The notes: generated from the letters alone by a model not told the origin. A DNA stretch of 64,000 nt from Candidatus Avelusimicrobium facis (GCA_934636855.1 CAKUBH010000005.1:46370-110369); one strand, 5' to 3'. Positions 35,044 to 47,363 are shown, counted from the first letter of the stretch. Numbers and translations are program-made.

Positions 35044-35059
35044 GTTTTCACATGAAAAC
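35044..35059. other. parS-like centromere site (variant GTTTTCACATGAAAAC)
   Basis: 16-bp palindrome; 12/16 match to canonical parS TGTTTCACGTGAAACA; 80 bp beyond the 3' end of parB. Confidence 0.55.
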
Positions 35060-35138
35060 TTTTTACAGACCGAACGCTTTGGACGCAAAAAAAAAAGGCC
35101 CGGCCTGGCGGACCGGGTCTTTTTGGTAAAACAAGAGT

Positions 35139-36032
35139 CTATAACAACTTGGTTTTTAAGCGGCCGGCCAAATTATCCAATTCTTCCAACGAGTTATACT
35201 GAATAATCAGCAATCCTTTGGACATTTTTTTGCCGTAGCGCACTTCCACTTTGGTGCCCAGCGCCGCTTGCAAGTCATTTTCAAAGCTGGCCACCTCCGG
35301 CGGCTTGGGCGCCTTGGGCGCAGCTGCCGGCTGCAACAAAGCGCGGGCCGCATCCTCGGCTTGGCGGACGGACATTTTGCTCTTCTTCATGCGTTGGAAA
35401 AGAACTTCTTTCTTGGCCAAATCGGGCAACATCAGCAAGGCCCGGCCGTGCCCTTCCGTAATAGTGCCGTCCTGCAAGGCCGCTTGCATATGTTCCGGCA
35501 GGTCCAGCAACCGCAGCGAATTAGACACCGCCCCTTTGGACTTGCCGCAATAGCCTGCCAAATCCGTTTGGGAAATACCAAATTTATTCATTAAATTGCG
35601 GTATCCCAAGGCAGTTTCTATGGGGTTTAAATCCTCGCGCTGGATATTTTCAATCAAAGCCAAGGCGCACATTTGTTTATCGGTCAAGGCTTTGTGAACC
35701 AGCGCGTCAATCTCCGTCAAGCCGGCCAGCTGGCTGGCGCGGAAGCGGCGTTCCCCGACCACAATTTCATATTTATCCAGCCCCGCGTCATACACCACCA
35801 CAATGGGCTGCGTCAGGCCGTGCTCGGCGATAGATTGGGCCAATTCCTGCAATTTAGCCTCGTCAAACACACGGCGCGGCTGAAAGCGGTTGGGGATGAT
35901 TTTATCCAGGGCAATTTTCTGCACGGAAGAATGGGGGGTGCCCTCCGGCCGGGCAGCCGGGGGATTATTTAAAACATCTTGGGTTTGTTTGAGCAAGGCA
36001 TCCAAGCCTTTGCCTAATGCTTGTCTGGGCAT
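35139..36032 (-). CDS. parB: chromosome partitioning protein ParB/Spo0J
   Basis: ParB box and HTH; GERRFRA motif; 297 aa. Confidence 0.9.
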   Translation of the reverse strand: MPRQALGKGLDALLKQTQDVLNNPPAARPEGTPHSSVQKIALDKIIPNRFQPRRVFDEAKLQELAQSIAEHGLTQPIVVVYDAGLDKYEIVVGERRFRASQLAGLTEIDALVHKALTDKQMCALALIENIQREDLNPIETALGYRNLMNKFGISQTDLAGYCGKSKGAVSNSLRLLDLPEHMQAALQDGTITEGHGRALLMLPDLAKKEVLFQRMKKSKMSVRQAEDAARALLQPAAAPKAPKPPEVASFENDLQAALGTKVEVRYGKKMSKGLLIIQYNSLEELDNLAGRLKTKLL

Positions 36033-36037
36033 AGGGT

Positions 36038-36871
36038 TCAGCCTCCGAAATCATAATTGTAAGCGCCGGAATTATTCATAGAAAATCCGGCATAGTCGGC
36101 CACGTTGGCCCCGCGGCGGGCCATAAATTCAATGGCCAGCTGGATATAGGCATTGGCGCCCCGGCAGGCCGGGTCGTAGTCAAAAATAGACTGCCCGAAG
36201 CTGGGGGCCTCGGCCAAGCGGATATTGCGCGGAATGGGGGTTTTGTAAACCTTGTCTCCAAAAAAGCGGCTGACTTCTTCAAACACTTGTTTGGACAAAT
36301 TCATACGCGCATCGTACATTGTCAGCAAGCCGCCGTCCAATTTCAAGTTATTGTTTAAGAACTGCTTGATTTTGGAAATGGTGGACATGAAGTGCGCCAG
36401 CCCTTCCATGGCATAGTATTCGCACTGCACCGGAGTAATCACGCTGTCGGCCGCCATCAGGGCATTTAAGGTCAGCAGTCCCAAAGACGGGGGACAATCT
36501 ATAATAATGTAGCGGTACATTTTGCGCAACGGGGCCAAAGCCTCGCGCAGCATATTTTCGCGACCGCGGATATTGACCAGCTCCACTTCCGCCCCGGCTA
36601 AGTTTTTGCAAGTGGGGATAACATCCAACATTTCATTGGATGTTTGGCGCACAACTTCTTCAAAGGATGCGTTTTTGGTTAACAAATGGTAAACGGATTT
36701 TTCCCCGTCTACCAGGCTAATGCCCAGCCCGGAACCGGCGTTGCCCTGCGGGTCAAAATCTACCAGCAAGACTTCTTGGTCCAGGTAGGCCAAGGCATAA
36801 GCCAGGTTGATAGCGGTCGTAGTTTTCCCCACGCCGCCTTTTTGGTTCGCTATGGCTACTATTTCACCCAT
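36038..36871 (-). CDS. parA: chromosome partitioning ATPase ParA/Soj
   Basis: Deviant Walker A KGGVGKTT; 277 aa. Confidence 0.9.
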   Translation of the reverse strand: MGEIVAIANQKGGVGKTTTAINLAYALAYLDQEVLLVDFDPQGNAGSGLGISLVDGEKSVYHLLTKNASFEEVVRQTSNEMLDVIPTCKNLAGAEVELVNIRGRENMLREALAPLRKMYRYIIIDCPPSLGLLTLNALMAADSVITPVQCEYYAMEGLAHFMSTISKIKQFLNNNLKLDGGLLTMYDARMNLSKQVFEEVSRFFGDKVYKTPIPRNIRLAEAPSFGQSIFDYDPACRGANAYIQLAIEFMARRGANVADYAGFSMNNSGAYNYDFGG

Positions 36872-36927
36872 AATTCCTCCATTAAAGATATTAAATCATA
36901 AATAAAAAAGAAAAGCAACTATTTTTT

Positions 36928-36943
36928 GTTTTCACGTGAAAAC
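36928..36943. other. parS-like site GTTTTCACGTGAAAAC
   Basis: Perfect 16-bp palindrome with the TTTCACGTGAAA core identical to parS; 57 bp upstream of the parA start. Confidence 0.6.
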
Positions 36944-36962
36944 ACGCTCTGTTGTAAAAAAT

Positions 36963-36978
36963 GTTTTCACGTGAAAAC
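36963..36978. other. parS-like site GTTTTCACGTGAAAAC
   Basis: Second identical copy 35 bp from the first. Confidence 0.6.
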
Positions 36979-37057
36979 AAGACAGGCCCTGTATCAACAA
37001 GGCCTGTGAATTGCTGTGGATAACTTATTAACAGGGTCCGTTTTCCCTATACAATTT

Positions 37058-38032
37058 TTATTTTATCAAGCGAATGCGGTTCAACGGCCAGTGGATAAAC
37101 CAAGCGGTTCCTTTGATATTTTCGCGCGGGACCGGGCCCCAAAAACGGGAATCACAGGAATTATCACGGTTGTCGCCCATGGCAAAATAGGACCCTTCCG
37201 GCACCACTACCGGGCCGAAATTATCCCGCAGCGTAAGCCCCAGCTCATGCTCCAACACTCTCTTTTCCCACAAAAATTGGTATACTTCCGGCTCCGGCAC
37301 TTCCTCGGCCTGATAGCGGGTAACCGGCTCAAAGATTTCATACCCTTGTAGCGGCTGTTCTTTATCATTAATATATAAGGTGGCGTTTTTGATTTCTACC
37401 TTATCCCCCGGCATAGCAATGACGCGCTTAACATAGTCGCGCCCGTACTGCAAACCGCCGCAGTTTACTTGCGTAGGGCTTTCGGCCGGAAAAGAAAATA
37501 CAATAATATCCCCCGGTTGAATGGGCTTAAACTGTCCAAAGCGGATTTGGGTCAGCGGAATACGAAAGCCATAGGCTGCCTTGTTGACAAATAAATGGTC
37601 CCCTTCCAATAAGGTGTTGCGCATAGAGGCGGAGGGAATTTTAAAGGCCTGGATAAAAAAGAACATGACAATAGAGGCCACAAATCCGGCAAAATACACC
37701 GTATTGGCCCAATCTAAATCTTTTTTAACTAAGGTTTCTTTTTTTTCATCGGTTTTCTTTTTAGCGGAAAAGAAGCCATAGATAGCCAACGCGGCAATAA
37801 TCAGCCAGGGAAAAGCGCTCTTCAAAAAAGAGTCCTGAGTCAATGCGGGCGCGCTGCTGGCCGCAATAAAATGGAACAAACTATACATGCACCCCAAAAT
37901 AACAAACACAAACAACGCATGCCAGGCGCCAAAACACACCGGGGTTTTCAGCCACTTTTTACAAAAGTTTCGCTTACTCAGCCAAGAAAAAGCATACATA
38001 ATGCAAGCCATAATAAAAAGTCTTTGTTCCAT
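37058..38032 (-). CDS. lepB: signal peptidase I with N-terminal multi-TM extension
   Basis: S26 catalytic boxes: IPSASMRNTL (Ser), YVKRVIAMPGDKV (Lys), GDNRDNSCDSRFWG. Confidence 0.8.
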   Translation of the reverse strand: MEQRLFIMACIMYAFSWLSKRNFCKKWLKTPVCFGAWHALFVFVILGCMYSLFHFIAASSAPALTQDSFLKSAFPWLIIAALAIYGFFSAKKKTDEKKETLVKKDLDWANTVYFAGFVASIVMFFFIQAFKIPSASMRNTLLEGDHLFVNKAAYGFRIPLTQIRFGQFKPIQPGDIIVFSFPAESPTQVNCGGLQYGRDYVKRVIAMPGDKVEIKNATLYINDKEQPLQGYEIFEPVTRYQAEEVPEPEVYQFLWEKRVLEHELGLTLRDNFGPVVVPEGSYFAMGDNRDNSCDSRFWGPVPRENIKGTAWFIHWPLNRIRLIK

Positions 38033-38043
38033 ATTTCTTCCTT

Positions 38044-38059
38044 GTTTTCACGTGAAAAC
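38044..38059. other. parS-like site GTTTTCACGTGAAAAC
   Basis: Third identical copy, between lepB and the upstream glycosyltransferase. Confidence 0.6.
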
Positions 38060-39162
38060 TATTTAATTTCTGTATAAATTTTAAGATAAATTTGTTCCGG
38101 GGCCGGATAAAACCGCTCCATTCTCGCCCGCGCTGCGCGGCCCATTTTTTGGCGCAGCGCCGTATTTTCCGCCAACTCCGTCATCAAGACGGCCAGCAGA
38201 ACGGGGTCTTTCCCGGGAAACACAAAGCCATTTTCCCCGTGGCAGACCACCCGGGGCATATCGCCAACTTTACTAACAATAGCCGGTAAACCGCAAGCGG
38301 CAGCTTCCAGCAAGGCCAGCGGCAAACTCTCTATATAAGAGGGCAAAACAAAAATATCCGCTGCACAAAGATATTTGTAAACATTGCTTACTTCTCCTGC
38401 AAAAACAACCGCCTTTTCCAGCCCCCCTGCTTGCACTTGGCGGTGTAAATTTTCTTGCTCAGGCCCATCCCCCACCAGCAAAAGTTTACTCTGCGGATGT
38501 TTGGCATAAAATAATTGAAATGCCTGTAGCAAAAGGGCGTGGTTTTTCTCTTTAGACAGCCGGGCAACACAAGCAAAAACAACCTCTTGCGCCGAAAACC
38601 CCAGCTCCGCCCGCGCTGCCGTGCGCAAAGCATTATCCGGGCGAAACCGCTGCAAATCTACGCCGTTGGCCACCCGGCGTACCTTCTCCCGGGCGTATTT
38701 TTGCTTTTGCAGCAAAAAGTCCGCCGTAGATTGGGACTCGGCACAGCTCATATCGTCCCCATCCTTCAAAGCGCGGTCCAACAGGCGTAAAACATAGCCT
38801 TTACGGGATAGGTCATAGTGCGGCGTGGTGAGGAGCGTAAACGGGGTACGCCGCTTGGCCAAGCGGCAAAATTGAATAGCCCGGTAGAGCCCGGCATGTA
38901 CAACATCCGGGGAAAAGGCTTGTATCTGCGCCACCAGCCGCGCCAAAGCGCCCGCCGTTTCCAAAGGGCGGTACTTGCCGCGCAAGTCCAAAGACTCCAC
39001 CGATAAGCCCGCCTCTTGCAGCTGCCGGCCCAACGGCCCCAAGGGCCGCAGAGAAAGCACGTTTACTTCGTGCCCTGCGTGAAACGCCGCTTGGGCCAAG
39101 GTAAAAAAAGCCCTTTCGGCCCCGCCGACTTCGGTGCTGGTGCAAACATACAAAATCTTCAT
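38059..39162 (-). CDS. glycosyltransferase family 4 (GT-B, GT1 superfamily)
   Basis: N-terminal MKILYVCTSTEVGGAERAFF; C-terminal EGFGLPxxEA-like motif (ESLPLALLEAAACGLPAI). Confidence 0.75.
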   Translation of the reverse strand: MKILYVCTSTEVGGAERAFFTLAQAAFHAGHEVNVLSLRPLGPLGRQLQEAGLSVESLDLRGKYRPLETAGALARLVAQIQAFSPDVVHAGLYRAIQFCRLAKRRTPFTLLTTPHYDLSRKGYVLRLLDRALKDGDDMSCAESQSTADFLLQKQKYAREKVRRVANGVDLQRFRPDNALRTAARAELGFSAQEVVFACVARLSKEKNHALLLQAFQLFYAKHPQSKLLLVGDGPEQENLHRQVQAGGLEKAVVFAGEVSNVYKYLCAADIFVLPSYIESLPLALLEAAACGLPAIVSKVGDMPRVVCHGENGFVFPGKDPVLLAVLMTELAENTALRQKMGRAARARMERFYPAPEQIYLKIYTEIK

Positions 39163-39264
39163 GTTCTCATTATAGCAAAGTTCAACCGATGAGACGAAAG
39201 AAGCTTCCAAAGAGAAAGGCGCCAAAGCAAGCTTTGGCGCCCAAATACAAACCGACGGCTCAAA

Positions 39265-39423
39265 CTACTCGGCCGGTTTAAACTGATCCTTGCCTACCCC
39301 GCACACCGGGCAAACCCAATCAGCCGGCAAATCCTCAAACTTCGTTCCGGCGGCAATGCCGTGTTCGGTGTCGCCCACGGCCGGATCATATACATAGCCA
39401 CAAACTTCGCAAATATATTTCAT
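39265..39423 (-). CDS. rubredoxin
   Basis: 52-aa ORF missed by the >=60-aa track: [18 protein letters not shown]...[14 protein letters not shown] with two CxxCG knuckles. Confidence 0.8.
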
Positions 39424-39435
39424 GGTATTCTCTCC

Positions 39436-39963
39436 TTAATGTGCACTGTGTGTTGCGCCCAAAGGCGTTTTGCCTTTAATGACGCTGTGATAATACGCGT
39501 AAGTCATCGGGGTCGGGTCTTTTATTTGAAAAGAAGCCTCCGCCCGGACCGAACCCACAAACAAGGTGTGGGTGTCTACATCTAAAGTCTGCTCCACTTC
39601 CGCCTCTATAAAGCCCAAGGTATGCGCTTTGACCAGCGGACAGCCGGTTACCCCGCGGGTAAATTCCAGCCCGGCCAATTTGTCAAAGGTGCGCCCCGTG
39701 CGGAAACCAAACCGCCCGATGAAAGGCAAATCCGCACTTTGGGCTAAGGGCAGCACGGCAAAATGGCGGCTGTGGCGGACCAACTCATGCGTCAGGCTGG
39801 CTTTATTGATACAAACCGCCAGCCGGGGCGGTTGCGCCGTTACCTGAAAAGCCGCATTGGCAATCAGTCCGTTGTCTTTGCCTTGCCAGGACGTGGTTAC
39901 AATATAAATCCCGTAGGTAATTAAGTCCAGCCCGTGCTGCGTGGCTATGGGGAGCATAGGCAC
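39436..39963 (-). CDS. flavin reductase-like FMN-binding protein
   Basis: Flavin_Reduct domain (IVTTSWQGKDNGLIANAAFQVT); in an operon with rubredoxin and a flavodiiron protein. Confidence 0.65.
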   Translation of the reverse strand: MPMLPIATQHGLDLITYGIYIVTTSWQGKDNGLIANAAFQVTAQPPRLAVCINKASLTHELVRHSRHFAVLPLAQSADLPFIGRFGFRTGRTFDKLAGLEFTRGVTGCPLVKAHTLGFIEAEVEQTLDVDTHTLFVGSVRAEASFQIKDPTPMTYAYYHSVIKGKTPLGATHSAH

Positions 39964-39965
39964 CT

Positions 39966-41159
39966 CTATTTCAATTTTTCGGCAATTTTTTTACTAACCG
40001 CCAAGCCCAAGGCTTTGCACGCCTGTTCCACCGGGGCATCCGGCACAAATTTAGCGCTGACCACGGGAGCCACCGCCTCTATGCCCAGCTCCGTCAAGGT
40101 ATTGGCTAAGGCATTGACCGGGCCCGGGTTCCACCCGTAAGAGCCGAAGGCTCCGCCCACTAAATGTTTCTTTTTCAAGCCCTTTAAATAGCACAATACA
40201 TCGGCCATAGACGGAAAAATGCCCGAGTTCAACACCGGCGAGCCTATAATCAGCCCGCTGCTGTCTAACAGTTCGGTAGCCACATCGCTGCGGTGGCAGG
40301 AATGCATAGACAACAACTTCACTTCGGTACCGCCCAAGCGCAAGCCCTCGGCAATGTATTGGGCCATTTTTTGGGTGCTGCCCCACATGGTGTCGTACAC
40401 CACCAAGGCTTTATTTTTTGGCGCCTGCGCGGCCCACTTGGCGTATAAATTGACAATTTTGGACGGGTCCTTGCGCCAAATAAACCCATGGTCCGGGGCA
40501 ATCATCTTGGGCGAAAGACCCATTTTTTGCACGGTGTCTAAAAAGCGCAGGACAATGTCCGAATACGGCAAGACGATATTGGCATAATATTTTTCCGCCT
40601 CATACAGCCACAGGCGTTCCTCGTTTTCGTCGTCAAACAATCGGCTGGTGGCATAGTGCATACCGAATACGTCGTTGGTGAATAAAATGTTTTCCTTTTC
40701 CAAATAAGAAAACATACTGTCGGGCCAGTGCAACATGCGGGCTTCCACAAAAGAAATAGTGTCTCCGCCAATATCTATTTTATCGCCGGTTTTGACGACC
40801 TTCATCGGAAATTTCGGATGCAGCTGCGCGCTCAAATCCTTTAGCCCCATGTCCGAGCAATAAATTTCTTTGGGCTCTATGGCGGCTACCGCCTCGGGCA
40901 AAGCGCCGGAATGGTCCATCTCCGAGTGATTGGAAATAATAATTTCAATTTTCTTGGGATCTATGACGCTGGCGATGCGGGCCATCATTTCCGGGTAAAA
41001 CTCTTTTTTCACCGTGTCTATCAGGGTGGGTTTATCCGACAAAATCAAATAAGCATTGTATGTAGTACCGCGATTTGTGGAATAGCCGTGAAAATCGCGG
41101 ATGTTCCAATCAATGGCCCCTACCCAATATACTTTGTCCGTTACTTGAATTGCTTGCAT
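39966..41159 (-). CDS. flavodiiron protein (rubredoxin:oxygen/NO oxidoreductase, FprA/ROO)
   Basis: Metallo-beta-lactamase-like di-iron domain (HSEMDHSG, HWPDSM) plus C-terminal flavodoxin domain (VVYDTMWGST); 397 aa. Confidence 0.85.
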   Translation of the reverse strand: MQAIQVTDKVYWVGAIDWNIRDFHGYSTNRGTTYNAYLILSDKPTLIDTVKKEFYPEMMARIASVIDPKKIEIIISNHSEMDHSGALPEAVAAIEPKEIYCSDMGLKDLSAQLHPKFPMKVVKTGDKIDIGGDTISFVEARMLHWPDSMFSYLEKENILFTNDVFGMHYATSRLFDDENEERLWLYEAEKYYANIVLPYSDIVLRFLDTVQKMGLSPKMIAPDHGFIWRKDPSKIVNLYAKWAAQAPKNKALVVYDTMWGSTQKMAQYIAEGLRLGGTEVKLLSMHSCHRSDVATELLDSSGLIIGSPVLNSGIFPSMADVLCYLKGLKKKHLVGGAFGSYGWNPGPVNALANTLTELGIEAVAPVVSAKFVPDAPVEQACKALGLAVSKKIAEKLK

Positions 41160-41186
41160 AGGTTCTCCTTATCCGGTTGTCTGTAA

Positions 41187-41570
41187 TTAATTCGTCTTTT
41201 CCCATAAGCCGTGCAAATTGCAATACTCCCGGGCGGTTACTTTTTCGGCGTCGGATTTAAAAAATACTTCCGGCTGGTCCCCCGGTTTTAAATATTGCCG
41301 CTGCACCCGCCCGCAGGCGCAAACCAGCTCTATCCATTCTATAAAATGTACATCCAACATGGGGTGGGCAATTTCTCCTACTTTTACTTTGTATCCCCCG
41401 TCTACTTTTTCTATCACGGGAATGTGTTTTTCCGTAGCAGCTTCTACGCTGCCGGGAATTTGCTTTACCATGGGTTTGCCGCAGCAAACCAACTCCCCCG
41501 ATGAAGCATGCACTACTTCCACTATATTACCGCATACAGAACATTTATAAATCTCATGAAGCTGTGTCAT
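41187..41570 (-). CDS. dfx: desulfoferrodoxin (2Fe superoxide reductase)
   Basis: N-terminal desulforedoxin CxxC...CC ([10 protein letters not shown]...VCCGKPM) plus SOR centre II ([20 protein letters not shown]-x-C). Confidence 0.85.
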
Positions 41571-41890
41571 TTTATGGCCTCCGCCTGTTTTATATTAATA
41601 AGAATATTTCTTGTTTAATTATAGCAAATTTTCATTTCTCTTTTATTATAAGTTTTGTTTTATACTTTCTCAAGCACTAAAAAAGGATTAGGAAAAACAA
41701 AAATCAAAAACTGTGGATAATTTTTGTTTTTGTGTTTTTTGGGGTAAATTTTAAAAAATAACCCCTTTTTTTATTTTTATAGGGTAGGGATATTTATCTA
41801 AACCTTAAAACGCCCAAATTAAGCTGTTTTTTGGCTTAAAAGCCAAAATGGCTTTTTTTAGTGTTGACGCTGCCCTGAATAATTGCTAAG
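41571..41890. other. AT-rich dnaA-upstream spacer with a DnaA box (candidate oriC part 1 / divergent promoter region)
   Basis: GC content far below the flanks. Perfect DnaA box TGTGGATAA at 41712-41720. TTGACG-17-TAAGAT promoter-like element abutting the dnaA ATG. Coding-strand bias switches here. Confidence 0.5.
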
Positions 41891-43306: not shown

Positions 43307-43472
43307 TTTCGGTGGATAAACAGGGGATAAATCCGTACCGGCAGAGGATAACTGAAATTTGTGTGCATAATGTATATAACCTTTTTTACTTGTACACAAG
43401 CAATGATAAATTTTGTATAGGGCAACAAACAAATCCACATCATCAACAGGACATATTAATAGGATTAATAAT
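43291..43472. other. dnaA-dnaN intergenic DnaA-box cluster plus AT-rich stretch (candidate oriC part 2)
   Basis: TGTGGATAA (43291-99, perfect), GGTGGATAA (43312-20), GGGGATAAA (43324-32) and GAGGATAAC (43344-52) in one orientation, followed by ~100 bp of AT-rich sequence. Confidence 0.55.

Positions 43473-44581: not shown

Positions 44582-44582
<1 letters not shown>
43473..44582 (+). CDS. dnaN: DNA polymerase III beta sliding clamp
   Basis: MKINITKETLLEGIQ... three-domain beta clamp; start at the internal Met of the listed ORF. Confidence 0.9.

Positions 44583-47363
<2,781 letters not shown>

Follow-up and report, generated by a model that had tools for sequence, protein, structure and literature searches.

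To our knowledge, ParB and its centromere site parS form a textbook, near-universally conserved bacterial protein-DNA pair, and the only well-studied natural change in its specificity is that of the Firmicutes paralog Noc. Here, we describe the ParABS locus found in a window of 64,000 nucleotides (hereafter, the window) from Candidatus Avelusimicrobium facis (GCA_934636855.1, CAKUBH010000005.1:46370-110369), a gut Elusimicrobiaceae bacterium. Its parAB genes are surrounded by four palindromes that have the core of parS and different outer bases, and the adjacent ParB has lysine in place of the arginine that contacts the outer guanine in the canonical pair. Across the phyla Elusimicrobiota and Omnitrophota, these outer bases co-occur with the residues at positions 173 and 177 of ParB (Caulobacter numbering).

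In the Caulobacter ParB-parS co-crystal, R173 forms hydrogen bonds with guanine 1, the G located 7 bp from the dyad (PMC7383237). Both R173 and G201 were described as absolutely conserved among the extant ParB orthologs, and the parS-specific variants in a four-position library of the Caulobacter protein always contained R173; with Q173, the residue found in Noc, the preference is for adenine 1 (PMC7383237). Noc is limited to Firmicutes and combines the Noc-binding site (NBS) ATTTCCCGGGAAAT with the specificity residues Q173, K179, K184, and R201 (PMC7383237). The ParB of P. aeruginosa binds half-parS, with the heptamer GtTcCAc, and G1 of this half-site was strictly conserved in chromatin immunoprecipitation sequencing (PMC5961200).

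The locus analyzed here shares three features with the canonical ParABS systems of B. subtilis (Spo0J), Caulobacter, Thermus, and Myxococcus. These are an origin-proximal cluster of sites around parAB, a 16-bp dyad that agrees in its central 12 bp and in the position of the wobble, and a ParB that has the CTPase N-domain (GERRxRA), the helix-turn-helix (HTH) domain, and the C-terminal dimerisation domain, with equivalents of G201 and R204. It differs from these systems in the site, where T replaces the guanine contacted by R173 and G is found one bp outward, and in the protein, where K takes the place of R173 and S that of A/T177.

Palindromes in the window were searched for at up to two mismatches, and the expectation was obtained from 100 dinucleotide-preserving shuffles. 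In total, three exact copies of GTTTTCACGTGAAAAC and one one-mismatch copy, GTTTTCACATGAAAAC, were found (Table 1); no fifth copy was found in the window at this threshold. The chance expectation for such matches is 0.03, and none of the 100 shuffles reached four. The central 12 nucleotides, TTTCACGTGAAA, are the same as the canonical parS core. Compared with the full consensus TGTT(T/C)CACGTG(A/G)AACA, with its G at 7 bp, these palindromes match in the 12 central bases of 16 and have T at 7 bp and G at 8 bp from the dyad, being variants rather than matches. The canonical sequence TGTTTCACGTGAAACA, searched for at up to three mismatches, gave only a poor, chance-level match in the window, at position 38207. 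Both sites upstream of parA are extended to 18-bp palindromes, TGTTTTCACGTGAAAACA, by one more flanking base. Relative to the canonical half-site TGTTTCAC, TGTTTTCACGTGAAAACA has one additional T, and the G is therefore located at 8 bp, not at 7 bp. Thus written, the variant half-site is GTTT(T/C)CAC, compared with (T)GTT(T/C)CAC in canonical parS. Isolated half-sites are not enriched, only one being found in the window.

All four sites fall in a 3-kb stretch around parAB. Upstream of parA, two of them are separated by 35 bp from centre to centre, and pairs at 34-37 bp were found in many relatives. The site between the GT4 glycosyltransferase gene and lepB takes up nearly all of this 26-nt spacer, its last base being the third base of the GT4 stop codon. 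The one-mismatch site is located approximately 40 nt past the terminator hairpin of parB. All gene calls were checked by Pfam, which also identified dnaN in the window. The position of dnaA, the minimum of the cumulative GC skew at approximately 41-42 kb, and further DnaA boxes, perfect at 41712 and 43291 and near-perfect at 43311 and 43362, place the sites 3.8-6.8 kb from dnaA/oriC. The initial annotation had reported these palindromes, with the parS core and different outer bases, in a GT4-lepB-parA-parB context less than 7 kb from dnaA; the motif searches and the Pfam genes reproduced each of these statements.

The variant palindrome was further analyzed in 71 distinct parB loci of Elusimicrobiota, comprising 783 kb; with loci from a metagenome scan, the series reaches down to 46% ParB identity. 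Each of the 156 variant sites in these loci falls in the interval from -2.6 to +1.2 kb relative to the parB start; in the remaining 556 kb of this DNA, no variant sites were found. A site is present at most 260 bp upstream of parA in 55 of the 57 loci that cover this region. Two to five syntenic copies of GTTT(T/C)CACGTG(A/G)AAAC are present in each contig of the species itself (L001-L010) and in each of 25 Elusimicrobiales loci whose ParBs are 72-98% identical. Nearly all relatives with a ParB identity of 66-98% have a counterpart of the site between GT4 and lepB, at approximately -1900 to -2170 relative to the start of parB. Fully canonical parS is absent from every Elusimicrobiota locus examined. 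Conversely, in approximately 55 loci of other phyla no variant sites were found, and any site found was canonical.

This syntenic conservation is retained despite divergence of the spacers. When the lepB-parA spacers of 14 species (ParB identity 48-100%) are aligned, columns are on average 32% identical, and conservation is confined to the 16-mer, the ribosome-binding site, the ATG, and a weak promoter-like pattern, TTG...TTTAATAT, whose two blocks are partly conserved. The latter pattern belongs to a putative parAB promoter located 9 nt downstream of the proximal site. The DnaA box TTATCCACA in the same spacer is conserved only in the closest relatives (the window, L013, and L019). Judging by sequence and synteny, the four palindromes are very probably functional parS sites of the adjacent ParB.

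The T/C wobble in the variant sites is located at the same distance from the dyad as the N position of canonical parS. This wobble is often uncompensated (GTTTCCACGTGAAAAC), and therefore the palindromes resemble protein half-sites rather than a hairpin. A role at the nucleic acid level, as a hairpin or cruciform, a terminator, or a mobile repeat similar to repetitive extragenic palindromic (REP) elements, is hardly credible. The two adjacent copies can pair, with a DNA fold of -19.3 kcal/mol (z = -5.9); however, this fold is uninformative because two identical palindromes pair trivially. Conservation concerns the sequence and not the pairing, the actual terminator hairpins adjoin the sites but are separate from them, and the motif, unlike REP elements, is absent from the 556 kb of flanking DNA. 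An Rfam scan of the whole window detected one tRNA only and gave no match at the palindromes.

The palindromes could also be operators of another transcription factor, or pure ParB autorepressor sites for parAB, lepB, and their neighbours with no centromere role, which we consider very improbable. This explanation agrees with the distance of 9 nt between the proximal site and the putative -35 element of parA, with the site that separates the stop codon of GT4 from the ribosome-binding site of lepB, and with the perfect DnaA box close by. It does not agree with a core identical to that of parS, with the sites found downstream of parB and within parA, or with the lack of any consistently linked gene for another regulator. 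Moreover, the sites track parAB when the neighbours change, namely in the gidA-parA loci of Omnitrophota and in environmental Elusimicrobiota with a nucleoside transporter gene or glnA by parA. Autoregulation by ParB and centromere function can coexist in known systems, which also counts against a purely regulatory role.

The site downstream of parB was found in many species at +880 to +1100 from the parB start, with a central mismatch (CATGTG or CACATG). This central transition is near-constant at 62-100% ParB identity and affects either half-site (window 35044-35059; L001, 10972; L112, 7024; L115, 7096; L117, 3594; L118, 2779). It may reflect a selected weaker site or recurrent CpG decay.

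An Elusimicrobiaceae lepB-parA-parB locus with variant parS was also found in two contigs labelled as other taxa: CAVHDF010000018.1 (L011, labelled Eggerthellaceae, 98% ParB identity) and CAVDMZ010000137.1 (L012, labelled Duodenibacillus, 95%). Both look like mis-binned contigs in public metagenome-assembled genomes. Among the loci of other phyla, the Firmicutes loci L048, L060, L064, and L078 have the classic arrangement and were used as a positive control. In each, the coding region of parB/spo0J contains a pair of perfect canonical parS sites separated by 162 bp, and a Noc-like paralog (QK.R) lies upstream. No recognisable parS, canonical or variant, was found within 10 kb of parB in the Patescibacteria loci L035, L036, L038, L040, L041, and L044 and in the Bacteroidales loci L051, L056, and L069, all of which encode ParBs with R173. 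Control loci without a recognisable parS in the flanks (Patescibacteria, Bacteroidales, and others) are uninformative either way.

The outer bases were compared in the two groups of half-sites. Of the 294 Elusimicrobiota half-sites, 87% have G at 8 bp and 92% have T at 7 bp; of the 126 half-sites from the control phyla, 78% have T at 8 bp and 97% have G at 7 bp. As indicated by this conservation, the outer bases of the variant half-sites are under selection. An alternative explanation is that the palindromes are ordinary parS sites with two neutral outer positions, where ParB reads the central 12-14 bp and both the GT..AC flanks and the changed residue arose by drift or a founder effect, with specificity unchanged. 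This explanation is unlikely. Down to 46% ParB identity, the outer positions are conserved like the core, and no Elusimicrobiota locus has a fully canonical site. The strict requirement of P. aeruginosa ParB for G1 in vivo (PMC5961200) and the invariance of R173 in the parS-specific variants of the Caulobacter library (PMC7383237) are also at odds with neutral outer positions.

The ParB found in the window has the ParB_N, HTH, and ParB_C domains, the motifs GERRFRA (residues 93-99) and ENIQRED, and a ParA partner; no second ParB-like gene was found in the window. In ungapped alignments with B. subtilis Spo0J, Myxococcus ParB, and Noc, K166 (in GKSK; codon 35535-35537) corresponds to R173 of Caulobacter ParB, and S170 (codon 35523-35525) to position 177. 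G194 and R197 are the equivalents of G201 and R204, respectively, and both are retained. Therefore, of the two residues described as invariant, R173 is replaced by K166 and G201 is kept as G194.

Lysine at position 173 was found in all ParBs of gut Elusimicrobiales, and the combination K173/S177 in 116 of 120 ParBs of environmental Elusimicrobiota. Among the best 150 cluster representatives from 1.8 billion proteins clustered at 50% identity, 149 could be scored; 139 of these have R, six have K, and four have V, A, or S. S177 accompanies the variant site in all 26 distinct HTH sequences and the canonical site in only 2 of 28. K173 was never seen paired with a fully canonical site. In addition, four chromosomal-type ParBs scattered among the canonical lineages (P0176, P0177, P0189, and P0290) combine Ser177 with A, V, or S in place of R173.

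One of the representatives with K173 (P0188) belongs to Omnitrophota. In this phylum, 119 of 120 ParB homologs have K173/S177, and the remaining one was not matched by the scan motif. Four Omnitrophota loci (dnaN-dnaA / rnpA-yidC-gidA-parA-parB) have one site each, located 60-100 bp upstream of parA. This site, GTTTCCACGTGGAAAC, shares the outer GT..AC bases; three of the loci have a perfect copy, and the fourth a copy with one mismatch. A crude ParB tree was constructed by neighbour-joining with 200 bootstraps and the recognition helix masked. The Omnitrophota ParBs were monophyletic in 200 of 200 bootstraps and grouped with Elusimicrobiota in none. Thus, the G/T swap recurs with K173 in a phylum that is unrelated to Elusimicrobiota in the ParB tree, which is also difficult to reconcile with neutral outer positions.

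Two single examples of ParB-family proteins with glutamine at position 173 were found. An Elusimicrobiota ParB with Q173 (P0507) is encoded in a locus with TATTTCACGTGAAATG upstream of parA (L178, 5105-5124), with A at 7 bp in both halves; this pair fits the experimental rule that Q173 goes with adenine, as in Noc (PMC7383237). The second example is a Pelotomaculum ParB-like protein with Q173, located beside ATATTTCACGTGAAATAA (L082, 1901-1918). In both cases, the parS-type CACGTG core is kept, and these sites look like natural counterparts of engineered intermediates between ParB and Noc.

Elusimicrobiota and Omnitrophota may, tentatively, be regarded as carrying a distinct natural class of ParB-parS specificity, in which Lys173, with Ser177, would read the outward-shifted guanine and which would be orthogonal to the canonical pair. 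Whether this ParB discriminates against canonical parS is, as far as the compared sequences tell, an evenly balanced question. Several observations weigh against the main interpretation, that of functional parS sites belonging to a natural specificity variant. Four Elusimicrobiota loci (L126, L127, L128, and L130; taxonomy checked for L127 and L128) use the GT..AC site with a ParB that has kept R173, and ParBs with R and with K are intermixed in the basal part of the Elusimicrobiota clade. Hybrid sites, in which a variant half is joined to a canonical-type half, were found with R and K ParBs alike (L113, L127, L128, L174, L176, and L177), and therefore the two half-site types may be only weakly discriminated. 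Three further HTH columns split the groups (Caulobacter positions 163, 168, and 169) but were set aside as determinants, being confounded with phylogeny, since all variant sequences in that comparison formed one clade. The motif distribution was sampled from flanks of approximately 6-10 kb and the 64-kb window, the host is uncultured, and the parA promoter, weak by consensus, was not called by a consensus promoter scanner.

The R173 lineages with the same variant site rule out K173 as the sole determinant, and because of them the variant site is taken to be older or wider than the R-to-K change. Lysine at position 173 is thus permitted by the variant site and not required. These lineages and the tolerance of hybrid half-sites also speak for neutral outer positions. 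Lysine and arginine are chemically alike and can both bond guanine O6/N7, which counts for the same explanation. The parA-internal sites in three environmental Elusimicrobiota loci, located approximately 300 bp into the parA coding sequence as a second site (L174, 5505; L176, 5508; L177, 5505), are hybrids of a canonical-type half, xG.TTTCAC, and a variant half, GTGAAA.AC.

The initial annotation had suggested a lineage-specific ParB specificity. The selected outer bases and the replacement of R173 by Lys support this suggestion; its scope, however, is wider than a narrow lineage, since the change is phylum-wide and recurs in Omnitrophota.

Among the known ParB-family systems, Noc shows a certain likeness to the variant pair, as an altered residue 173 accompanies an altered base at the same outer palindrome position. 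In searches with the full-length ParB from the window, Noc structures were the top PDB matches, slightly above the ParB structures, and for this reason an identity with Noc was considered. This identity was rejected. The specificity residues are K-S-D-G, not Q-K-K-R, and ParB structures score best when the DNA-binding domain alone is used. Furthermore, unlike Noc and NBS, the variant system has the core CACGTG and not CCCGGG (with A6 and G201 kept), sites clustered at parAB where those of Noc are scattered outside the terminus, and a parA-linked ParB. The likeness to P. aeruginosa ParB consists in the half-site as the recognition unit and in the T/C freedom at the same position; unlike in P. 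aeruginosa, the heptamer is TTT(T/C)CAC, and the G is located outside it. Precedents for co-diverged specificity are the ParB/parS pairs by which secondary chromosomes and plasmids are distinguished, such as those of Vibrio chromosome 2 and Burkholderia (also cited in PMC5961200). Those pairs belong to extra replicons beside a canonical system, whereas here the primary, dnaA-linked system of whole phyla is concerned. The locus represents a natural specificity variant of a known system and not a new kind of system. A search of one literature library for the motif, or for ParB/parS in Elusimicrobia, found nothing relevant.

By analogy with the established biology of ParABS, ParB dimers would nucleate on the variant sites via the HTH domain. 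Binding of CTP would then close the ParB clamp and allow spreading over the parAB-lepB region of approximately 3 kb, and the partition complex built in this way would be moved and segregated by ParA. K166, which is R in basal lineages, may reach the guanine one bp further out, and S170 may help to read it; both proposals are speculative. Since the proximal site is 9 nt from the putative -35 element, ParB probably damps the parAB promoter, and loading of SMC is probable, both by analogy. The initial annotation had interpreted the palindromes as origin-proximal centromere sites that load ParB and SMC. The parS identity in this interpretation is supported by their being the only conserved spacer element, by the restriction to parAB in 783 kb, by the kept wobble, and by the position beside dnaA/oriC; its SMC part would follow from the analogy given above.

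Other features of the region are listed in Table 1. An oxygen-detoxification cluster encoding desulfoferrodoxin, flavodiiron protein, flavin reductase, and rubredoxin (39361-41570) is located between dnaA and the parS region. A DciA-like open reading frame (44582-44902) is found between dnaN and gyrB, in the place where recF often sits.

Table 1. Predicted sites and neighbouring features of the parAB region in the window; positions are counted from the first nucleotide of the window.
Feature	Position	Strand	Description
parS-like site GTTTTCACATGAAAAC	35044..35059	.	Downstream of parB; one central C-to-T transition next to the dyad, in one half-site
Terminator-like hairpin and T-run	35099..35117	-	End of the parAB operon; promoter/terminator scan
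parB	35139..36032	-	297 aa; ParB_N 3e-30, HTH_ParB 3e-32, ParB_C 2e-12
parA	36038..36871	-	277 aa, ParA/Soj-type ATPase; AAA_31 1.7e-64, CbiA, MipZ, ParA
parA ribosome-binding site GGAGGAA	36874..36880	-	Read in the sequence; conserved in the spacer alignment
Putative parAB promoter	36890..36918	-	Predicted; TTGCTT-17 nt-TTTAAT, -35 at 36918-36913, -10 at 36895-36890
Predicted parS, promoter-proximal	36928..36943	.	Perfect 16-bp palindrome; 18-bp TGTTTTCACGTGAAAACA over 36927-36944
Predicted parS, second upstream of parA	36963..36978	.	Exact copy of GTTTTCACGTGAAAAC; 18-bp palindrome over 36962-36979
Terminator-like hairpin	36982..37007	-	After lepB; promoter/terminator scan
Perfect DnaA box TTATCCACA	37015..37023	-	lepB-parA spacer, approximately 40 bp from the parS pair
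lepB (signal peptidase I)	37058..38032	-	Pfam; predicted parS sites on both sides
Predicted parS in the 26-nt GT4-lepB spacer	38044..38059	.	Exact copy of GTTTTCACGTGAAAAC; GT4 stop codon on one side, lepB ribosome-binding site on the other
GT4 glycosyltransferase	38059..39225	-	Pfam
dnaA	41891..43306	+	Pfam; marks the origin region

In the primary, origin-linked partition system of two whole phyla, the key guanine has thus moved by one bp and the arginine that reads it has been replaced. The finding of K173 contradicts the published statement that R173 is invariant in ParB orthologs. These phyla provide a natural experiment in which an essential recognition code drifts while its function is kept, and apparent intermediates are available: arginine with the variant site, hybrid half-sites, and glutamine with adenine. 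Search tools for parS that rely on the canonical matrix will miss or mis-score the centromeres of Elusimicrobiota and Omnitrophota. If the variant pair is indeed orthogonal to the canonical one, it would be an addition to the ParB/parS toolkit for DNA labelling. If the two phyla do form a distinct class, residue 173 would be a tunable reader of the outer bases, with R for G at 7 bp, Q for A at 7 bp, and K for T at 7 bp together with G at 8 bp.

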